From Escherichia coli (lineage in GTDB: Bacteria > Pseudomonadota > Gammaproteobacteria > Enterobacterales > Enterobacteriaceae), in the NCBI RefSeq assembly GCF_003334785.1, contig NZ_QOWV01000003.1: 64,000 nucleotides of DNA, one strand, 5' to 3'. Positions 40,338 through 40,536 of this stretch are shown piece after piece. The number at the start of each line of letters is the position of its first letter. The first letter of the stretch is position 1. The translations under genes were made by a program, and so were the position numbers. The notes under the pieces are model-generated. The model did not search any database. It saw nothing but the letters and a program-made list of their open reading frames with translations, and was not told where the DNA came from.

Positions 40338-40425
40338 CACAGATTCTCCAGAGGTAATGTAGGGATTGTTTTAATTCCCGCTCCCTTATGGGAGAAGGTT
40401 AACGCTCGGGTAACCCTTGCCGAAT

Positions 40426-40503
40426 GTAGGCCGGATAAGGCGTTTACGCCGCATCCGGCAATCAATGCCTGATGCGACGCTGTCGCGTCTTATCAGGCCT
40501 ACA
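40426..40503. repeat. REP pair between acs and yjcH
   Basis: gtaggccggataaggcgtttacgccgcatccggca followed by gcctgatgcgacgctgtcgcgtcttatcaggcctaca. Confidence 0.85.
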
Positions 40504-40536
40504 AACCGTTACCGACTCGCATCGGGCAATTGTGGG

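Follow-up and report, generated by a model that had tools for sequence, protein, structure and literature searches.

Dispersed repeat elements between acs and yjcH of Escherichia coli K-12 and a possible modest effect of their transcribed hairpins on the acs-yjcH-actP mRNA

Results

Features of the acs–yjcH spacer

The spacer between acs (acetyl-CoA synthetase) and yjcH in the acs-yjcH-actP operon was analysed within a 64,000-nucleotide (nt) stretch of Escherichia coli DNA, hereafter called the window. The window is K-12-like, and the segment examined is identical to that of E. coli K-12 MG1655 (NC_000913.3), a window position being the genome position minus 4244876. The spacer occupies 40338-40536 (199 nt; identical to NC_000913.3 4285214-4285412) and is a pile-up of dispersed repeat elements, comprising repetitive extragenic palindromes (REPs) and a decayed remnant of the BoxC/PIT/TMECO repeat family. 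The features are listed below in the order in which the operon mRNA meets them.

40537-42495, minus strand: acs, an open reading frame of 652 amino acids, annotated as acs in MG1655.
40537-40539, minus strand: acs stop codon (TAA), the end of the acs reading frame.
40517-40530, minus strand: truncated y-type REP head, ATTGCCCGATGCGA (14 nt), beginning 7 nt past the acs stop codon.
40467-40502, plus strand: z2-type REP, GCCTGATGCGACGCTGTCGCGTCTTATCAGGCCTAC, a zero-mismatch match to the consensus regular expression, also covered by the Rfam naRNA4 alignment.
40460-40466, minus strand: short (S-type) linker of 7 nt, AUUGAUU on the mRNA by its sequence, joining the two REP heads.
40426-40459, minus strand: y-type REP, GCCGGATGCGGCGTAAACGCCTTATCCGGCCTAC, a zero-mismatch match to the consensus regular expression, in consensus orientation on the mRNA strand.
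40377-40410, plus strand: decayed BoxC/PIT/TMECO element, assigned by comparison with the consensus, antisense to the operon mRNA.
40402-40410, plus strand: BoxC block 3, ACGCTCGGG, degenerate, with at least 4 mismatches to the consensus.
40390-40398, plus strand: BoxC block 2, GGGAGAAGG, with 1 mismatch to the consensus.
Between blocks 1 and 2, plus strand: BoxC loop TTAT; the TTA linker after block 2 is kept.
40377-40385, plus strand: BoxC block 1, CCCGCTCCC, with 1 mismatch to the consensus.
40366-40376, minus strand: A-rich tract, AAUUAAAACAA, which the mRNA carries immediately 3' of the hairpin and which is kept along with it.
40335-40349, minus strand: yjcH ribosome-binding site GGAG (40346-40349) and ATG start codon (40335-40337), located by sequence.
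40023-40337, minus strand: yjcH, from the gene call and the MG1655 annotation.
38377-40026, minus strand: actP (acetate transporter), from the gene call and the MG1655 annotation.

On the mRNA, the UAA stop codon of acs is followed by CCCACA, the REP-head fragment, the inverted z2 REP, the 7-nt linker, and the y REP. About 30 nt of unique sequence then precede the BoxC-type hairpin, the A-rich tract, the yjcH Shine-Dalgarno sequence GGAG, and the AUG. Folded as RNA, the whole spacer reached -80.6 kcal/mol (z -5.3). A sequence-only reading of the window had placed two REPs and a further hairpin, ctccc-ttat-gggag at 40381-40394, in this spacer; the limits it gave for the spacer are exact, both REPs were recovered without mismatch, and the hairpin was present as described, whereas the truncated REP head at 40517-40530 had been missed. 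The absence of REP annotation at this position in the local RefSeq copy of K-12 is uninformative, since repeat features are absent from that copy everywhere, even at malE-malF.

No intrinsic terminator-like site was found on the minus strand between 39900 and 40900, and no promoter-like site for yjcH-actP was found on the minus strand of the spacer. The mRNA reads CAUUCGG 3' of the REPs and runs into A residues 3' of the BoxC-type hairpin; neither is followed by a U-run, so that neither qualifies as an intrinsic terminator. Under acid stress, the three genes changed together, the distal ones slightly more (log2 fold changes of -2.60 for acs, -3.14 for yjcH, and -3.58 for actP). Furthermore, co-transcription of acs-yjcH-actP is reported in the title of Gimenez 2003. 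Because there is no terminator- or promoter-like site, the genes respond jointly to acid stress, and co-transcription has been reported, the polycistronic mRNA should carry all of the spacer hairpins, as the sequence-only reading had supposed.

REP elements and their alleles

The REP consensus used was 34-36 nt long (GCC[G/T]GATGCG...CTTATC[C/A]GGCCTAC, including the GTAG/CTAC tetranucleotide). Both complete units matched it, both are palindromes with an internal mismatch, and both are extragenic and multicopy, a REP query finding a median of at least 30 BLAST places per E. coli genome. Their inverted-repeat arms were also picked up independently by a repeat finder. Within the window, the REP tail motif occurred 15 times against 0.51 expected, and none of 100 shuffles reached 15. 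The y REP folds into an RNA hairpin of -21.3 kcal/mol (z -4.7) and the z2 REP into one of -21.9 kcal/mol (z -6.0), each with an internal mismatch or bulge, and the two together could form a single long hairpin of -49.1 kcal/mol (z -8.5). The z2 unit reads GCC...GGCCTAC on the plus strand and is inverted on the mRNA, where it begins GUAGGCC.

A bacterial interspersed mosaic element of class 2 (BIME-2) consists of inversely oriented z2 and y units joined by a short linker, and strains differ in the number of its tandem copies (Ton-Hoang et al. 2012, PMC3333891, summarising Bachellier and Gilson). The acs–yjcH pair has its z2 and y units head to head across a 7-nt S linker, and its tandem copy number varies at this one locus: 2, 4, and 8 REPs, repeating about every 91 nt, were counted in the spacers numbered L001, L002, and L006. 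Judged by these features, the pair is a standard BIME-2 module; the K-12 spacer differs from the family description in that just one module is present, accompanied by a truncated REP head.

Complete E. coli genomes carried spacers of 132, 199, 209, 212, 225, 290, and 472 nt with 1, 2, 4, or 8 REPs. About 62% of the complete E. coli records had the arrangement of K-12 (identity of at least 99% over 501 nt). Two single-REP alleles, those of the GTDB E. coli representative (L007) and of E. whittamii (L010), have one full y REP at the position of the truncated head, and their spacers are 67-68 nt shorter than that of K-12. The K-12 spacer contains a 13-nt direct repeat (40450-40462 and 40518-40530, spacing 68), of which the truncated REP head is the left copy on the mRNA. 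The K-12 allele thus equals the single-y-REP allele plus a 68-nt BIME insertion bounded by the 13-nt repeat, which accounts for the orphan REP head. A single REP in the same orientation also lies a few nt past the acs stop codon in Salmonella and Citrobacter. These results indicate that the REP layer is young and that its copy number is variable among strains.

Comparison with known REP systems

The closest counterpart lies in the same window. The malE-malF spacer (200-352) contains a closely matching z2 and y module that shares the short linker and is oriented alike on its mRNA, and it is likewise intercistronic in a catabolite-controlled operon and lacks a U-run terminator; the Rfam naRNA4 model matches it at 220-290. 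It differs in having an extra y REP upstream, making three units in all. The REPs at this position are the classic intra-operon stabiliser (Newbury et al. 1987, as cited by later work); stabilisation of the upstream gene was shown by experiment for malE-malF, whereas the acs–yjcH module is likened to it through its sequence.

The second counterpart is REP325 between yjdM and yjdN, which has alternating z2 and y units between co-transcribed genes and from which the Rfam model matching the acs–yjcH pair was derived. It stabilises yjdM on its upstream side and attenuates yjdN on its downstream side, in part via Rho (Harris et al. 2026, preprint, 10.64898/2026.03.23.713779), and is also described in Qian 2015 (PMC4550694). 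However, it has 12 palindromic units against 2 at acs–yjcH and affects its downstream gene about 8-10-fold, so that a two-unit element would be expected to act more weakly. Across 146 tandem gene pairs separated by REPs, the median log upstream/downstream ratio was 0.96, compared with -0.09 in controls, with wide scatter (10.64898/2026.03.23.713779).

Further REP arrays were observed in the window. The lamB-malM spacer (4446-4550) has a BIME with y, z2, and y tails in the malK-lamB-malM operon and is the third intra-operon BIME of the window. A REP pair lies between the convergent genes ubiA and plsB (9072-9135), and a five-REP BIME array with two naRNA4 matches lies just 3' of gltP (50982-51221); this gltP-yjcO BIME was an in vitro substrate of TnpAREP in Ton-Hoang et al. 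2012 (PMC3333891).

The small hairpin as a BoxC relic

The sequence-only reading had grouped the small hairpin with the REPs, which proved to be wrong: it is a relic of BoxC, a separate and here far older repeat family. The 5-bp motif at 40381-40394 is not significant by itself in 64 kb (1 match, with 0.09 expected; the motif also arises in 9 of 100 shuffles). It extends to 40377-40398, where 8 of 9 positions pair (-11.2 kcal/mol, z -3.3), and reads CCUUCUCCC-AUAA-GGGAGCGGG on the mRNA (40398–40377). Its significance comes instead from conservation across species, as described below.

The BoxC/PIT/TMECO consensus is CCCTCNCCC-N3-6-GGGNGAGGG-N3-GGGNGAGGG (Holder et al. 2015, PMC4666352). The acs–yjcH copy matches the first two blocks, with one mismatch in each, and the type-A linker. 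Its degenerate block 3 departs from the published three-block pattern, although orthologous copies have the full consensus (e.g. L047, L052, and L035; genera Leclercia, Siccibacter, and Kosakonia). A composite BoxC query found a median of 7 places per E. coli genome and matched 4491 of 5426 genomes, as expected of a dispersed repeat. Table 1 of Holder et al. 2015 (PMC4666352) gives 23 TMECO copies in MG1655, none of them at acs–yjcH. By comparison with the consensus, we class the K-12 hairpin as a BoxC relic that falls outside the published pattern. The acs–yjcH copy holds its position across a bacterial family, whereas TMECO loci have been described as prone to rearrangement. At a permissive threshold, Rfam reported no family over the hairpin; the lone match, to CRISPR-DR57 (E = 0.8), is noise.

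Two inverted BoxC units (CCCTCTCCC..GGGAGAGGG-GGGTGAGGG ... CCCTCACCC-TAA-CCCTCTCCC..GGGAGAGGG) were observed in the spacers of several genera (L011, L016, L032, L039, L041, L043, L054, L060, and L062). These resemble the five tandem-inverted TMECO sites of MG1655.

Conservation in Enterobacterales

The comparative set comprised 80 Enterobacterales species recovered with YjcH, whose acs–yjcH spacers were 69-302 nt long. The sequence at the yjcH ribosome-binding site and start codon, CCTCTGGAGA...CTGTG ATG, is kept in nearly all of the 80 spacers. A hairpin with a pyrimidine arm and a purine arm, typically CCCUCUCCC-loop-GGGAGAGGG, was present in 53 of the 80 species, from more than 15 genera and in constant orientation, when it was required to be followed by at least 6 A residues within the next 12 nt. 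It lies 37-46 nt from the yjcH AUG wherever no enterobacterial repetitive intergenic consensus (ERIC) element intervenes, and it is present even in minimal spacers of 69-83 nt that have no REP. In several genera, CCCUCACCC-UAA stands just upstream of the hairpin; the complete unit there reads as the BoxC consensus in reverse complement.

A covariance model of the hairpin and the A tract matched only acs–yjcH spacers in the 334 kb searched, with a single match in the window (40365-40404, minus strand, 58.9 bits). In the alignment made with this model, 98% of cells were paired, compared with 62–80% when the partners were slid, and changes on both sides occurred at 6 of 9 pairs (18 cells, against 2.7 in shuffles; none of 500 shuffles reached 18). 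A loop-anchored count gave 91% paired and 76% in shuffles. Both alignments were fitted to the structure and so lean towards it. MAFFT and RNAalifold applied to 37 hairpin sequences yielded a weak, mis-registered consensus of 6 pairs, the homopyrimidine and homopurine stems slipping in alignment. From its orientation, position, and distribution, the BoxC-type hairpin is old and positionally conserved, predating the REPs by far.

The 27 species without the BoxC-type hairpin have other hairpins, belonging to unrelated sequence families and reaching -14 to -32 kcal/mol within 44 nt. A terminator-like hairpin just past acs was found in 4 of the 80 spacers. Every one of the 80 spacers contained at least one stable hairpin, and the median z of whole-spacer folding was -3.8. 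A structured acs–yjcH spacer is thus universal in the 80-species sample, and the REPs are merely its Escherichia-clade version.

In Salmonella, Citrobacter, Klebsiella, Kosakonia, and some E. coli, the BoxC-type hairpin is separated from the yjcH ribosome-binding site by an element of about 120 nt. We take it to be an ERIC-like element, also called an intergenic repeat unit (IRU), by its resemblance to the consensus. ERIC/IRU elements thus occupy the same spacer in other enterobacteria; the K-12 allele in the window lacks one and represents the empty-site form. The Salmonella copy gave weak Rfam matches to apparently ERIC-derived families. Carriers include E. coli TUM1223 (L005, positions 439-663), L021, L013, L053, and L035, and the hairpin stem of L005, CCCUUUC/GAAAGGG, is a compensated variant.

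The K-12 and E. albertii spacers differ at 5 of 199 nt (97.5% identity), compared with 17% divergence at third codon positions. Selective constraint on the spacer was considered as an explanation and dropped, because the block of low divergence, about 600 nt, extends over coding sequence, 300 nt in acs and 100 nt in yjcH. In this patch, whose centre is the spacer (E. albertii L009, 1001-1600, against window positions of about 40240-40840) there are 1-4 differences per 100 nt, against 5-15 elsewhere. The pattern suggests an inter-species recombination tract.

Transcript data for the operon

In exponential-phase LB cultures, acs (1959 nt) had a DESeq2 baseMean of 154 and actP (1650 nt) one of 121, which puts acs:actP per nt at about 1.07, with low counts (about 150) and acs barely induced in this condition. 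The complete curated lists of term-seq 3' ends and Rho regions, from LB at an optical density of 0.4 and 2.0 and from M63 glucose, included none at 4284700-4285699, where their sensitivity may be low. In the same kind of data (Adams et al. 2021, supplementary files 1 and 3), a high-count 3' end was observed within acs, at window position 42084 on the minus strand (NC_000913.3 4286960). It lies 411 nt from the acs start and could be an attenuation or processing site or a 5'-derived RNA.

Literature searching found no locus-specific work on REPs, Rho, or RNase E at acs–yjcH, and no transcript data for acs were obtained from Dar & Sorek 2018, Conway 2014, SMRT-Cappable-seq, or the half-life study of Chen 2015.

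Other features of the window

Two RNA features expected of the K-12 region were also recovered on the minus strand by Rfam: the small RNA sraL at 33051-33191 (153 bits) and the selenocysteine insertion element of fdhF at 53687-53741 (87 bits).

Discussion

A modest effect of the spacer hairpins on the mRNA

We favour, with moderate confidence, the reading that the spacer is a repeat pile-up whose transcribed hairpins modestly favour acs over yjcH-actP mRNA. The REP hairpins (-21 and -22, or jointly -49 kcal/mol) and the BoxC hairpin (-11 kcal/mol) would act as barriers to 3'-to-5' exonucleases, and they may also be weak, partly Rho-dependent attenuators in the 199-nt untranslated stretch. As a result, acs mRNA would be equal in abundance to yjcH-actP mRNA or somewhat above it. 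In K-12 the effect is probably modest and dependent on the growth condition, and it is probably a by-product of repeat insertion that is tolerated or mildly exploited, not a precisely tuned device.

The sequence-only reading had proposed that the REPs can stabilise the upstream message and uncouple the distal genes, and that they may set the acs:actP ratio. The general role is established at malE-malF and REP325; at acs–yjcH itself we found nothing supportive of it or of ratio setting, and the range of REP number among E. coli strains, from 1 to 8, argues against a finely set ratio. Several further observations weigh against an effect of the hairpins. The near-equal per-nt levels of acs and actP come close, at low counts, to the uniform coverage that the sequence-only reading had named as telling against its proposal, and no 3' end maps to the spacer. 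The K-12 spacer and its parts have no rut-like bias of C over G that would point to Rho loading (C/G 0.96-1.11). According to the literature, REPs placed after reporter genes do not always stabilise, and terminal REPs are uncorrelated with longer half-lives. Earlier tests of BoxC/PIT elements found no promoter or terminator activity (PMC4666352). Finally, a REP number of 1, 2, 4, or 8, with an added ERIC element in some strains, fits neutrality.

Alternative explanations

The strongest alternative, which we regard as possible though clearly less probable than a modest effect, is that the REPs are neutral or selfish passengers, introduced and multiplied by a REP-associated tyrosine transposase (RAYT/TnpAREP) or by recombination into a permissive gap, with no meaningful consequence for acs:actP. 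Polymorphism in both spacer length and REP number is what such passengers would leave, as is the derivation of the K-12 allele from a single-REP allele by a 68-nt insertion with a 13-nt direct repeat. BIME-2 copy number varies between strains in general, and TnpAREP cleaves and recombines BIMEs in vitro (PMC3333891). The similar RNA levels of acs and actP and the lack of a mapped 3' end agree with this explanation. However, the same module demonstrably acts on malEFG and yjdMN, REP-separated tandem gene pairs are biased towards the upstream gene genome-wide, most complete E. coli genomes retain the K-12 arrangement nearly unchanged, and some hairpin is retained in the spacer of all species.

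It is rather unlikely, but worth weighing, that the old BoxC-type hairpin with its A tract is the functional part, acting as a barrier to decay, as a site of processing, or as a means of controlling access to the yjcH ribosome-binding site, the REPs being later additions upstream of it. The fixed orientation and position of this unit in 53 of 80 species, its presence in minimal REP-free spacers, and the restriction of its covariance model to acs–yjcH spacers all speak for a role of its own, as do the 98% pairing with changes on both sides at 6 of 9 pairs. The E. coli copy has kept the hairpin but lost the third, triplex-forming block to decay, and species that lack the BoxC-type hairpin have others instead. 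On the other hand, BoxC is a dispersed repeat, and the spacer copy may be an inherited old insertion. Published tests showed neither promoter nor terminator activity (PMC4666352), both covariation counts come from structure-fitted alignments while the unbiased MAFFT/RNAalifold run was uninformative, and the K-12 copy is weakened to -11 kcal/mol.

A role at the DNA level, in which the BIME-2 serves as a site of gyrase binding and cleavage that relieves supercoiling downstream of acs, seems improbable. The literature reports that gyrase cleavage sites are over-represented in BIME-2, preferentially at y REPs and independently of transcription, and the acs–yjcH element agrees with the BIME-2 definition; however, cleavage affects only a subset of BIME-2, and the examples given, sucC-sucB and tldD-yhdP, do not include acs-yjcH. 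Strong sites are multi-copy, whereas a single module is present here, and a gyrase role would in any case be compatible with effects at the RNA level.

It is very improbable that the REPs reduce Acs synthesis by stalling terminating ribosomes near the stop codon, with subsequent mRNA cleavage and trans-translation. Nearly half of E. coli REPs are described in the literature as able to stall ribosomes just upstream of a stop codon, and in the single-REP alleles (L007, L005, and E. whittamii L010) the y REP stem begins 9-10 nt past the acs stop, so that stalling might be relevant to them. In K-12, however, the first full REP stem begins 38 nt past it; near the stop there is only the 14-nt REP-head fragment, and the 5' segment is not significantly structured (z -0.35). 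The distance criterion between REP and stop codon, as Liang and colleagues are said to have given it in 2015, is about 15 nt.

Least credible of all is a small RNA resembling naRNA4, encoded by the REP pair and acting with HU in nucleoid organisation: although Rfam RF02564 matches 40429-40499 on the plus strand above its gathering score (84.1 bits), that strand is opposite to the operon, the minus strand scores 53.9 bits and falls below the gathering score of 59.5, the model was built from the z2/y REP pair of REP325 and fits any such pair (5 matches in the window), and REP325/naRNA4 had no measurable effect on nucleoid compaction (10.64898/2026.03.23.713779). A naRNA4 gene at acs–yjcH was accordingly rejected on strand and score, the transcribed strand giving no match above the gathering score.

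Significance

The elements are of an already known kind at a well-studied locus, and an effect on mRNA would be one more case of a mechanism from the 1980s, with two other intra-operon BIMEs in the same window. What is mildly new is that the small hairpin is an ancient, positionally conserved BoxC relic and that some hairpin is kept in every species sampled. The locus also offers a convenient natural allele series for the recent proposal of "REPs as tunable dials".

A broader reading, which we consider doubtful, is that a hairpin between acs and yjcH is a selected and convergently maintained feature of Enterobacterales that sets the ratio of enzyme to transporter through interchangeable implementations. 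These would be the BoxC-type hairpin with its A tract in Enterobacteriaceae and, in Pectobacterium, Erwinia, and Pantoea, either long hairpins unrelated to it or weak terminators; Escherichia, Salmonella, and Citrobacter would have REPs in addition. If this were true, it would be the first RNA-level role for BoxC, so far without known function, and the natural alleles with 1 to 8 REPs would form a strain-specific expression dial.

Returning to the modest effect that we favour, if the REP and BoxC hairpins do uncouple the genes, a change in REP number or the insertion of an ERIC element would alter the amount of acetate transporter per acetyl-CoA synthetase. Such a change would leave promoters and proteins untouched, and it would bear on acetate scavenging and overflow metabolism.

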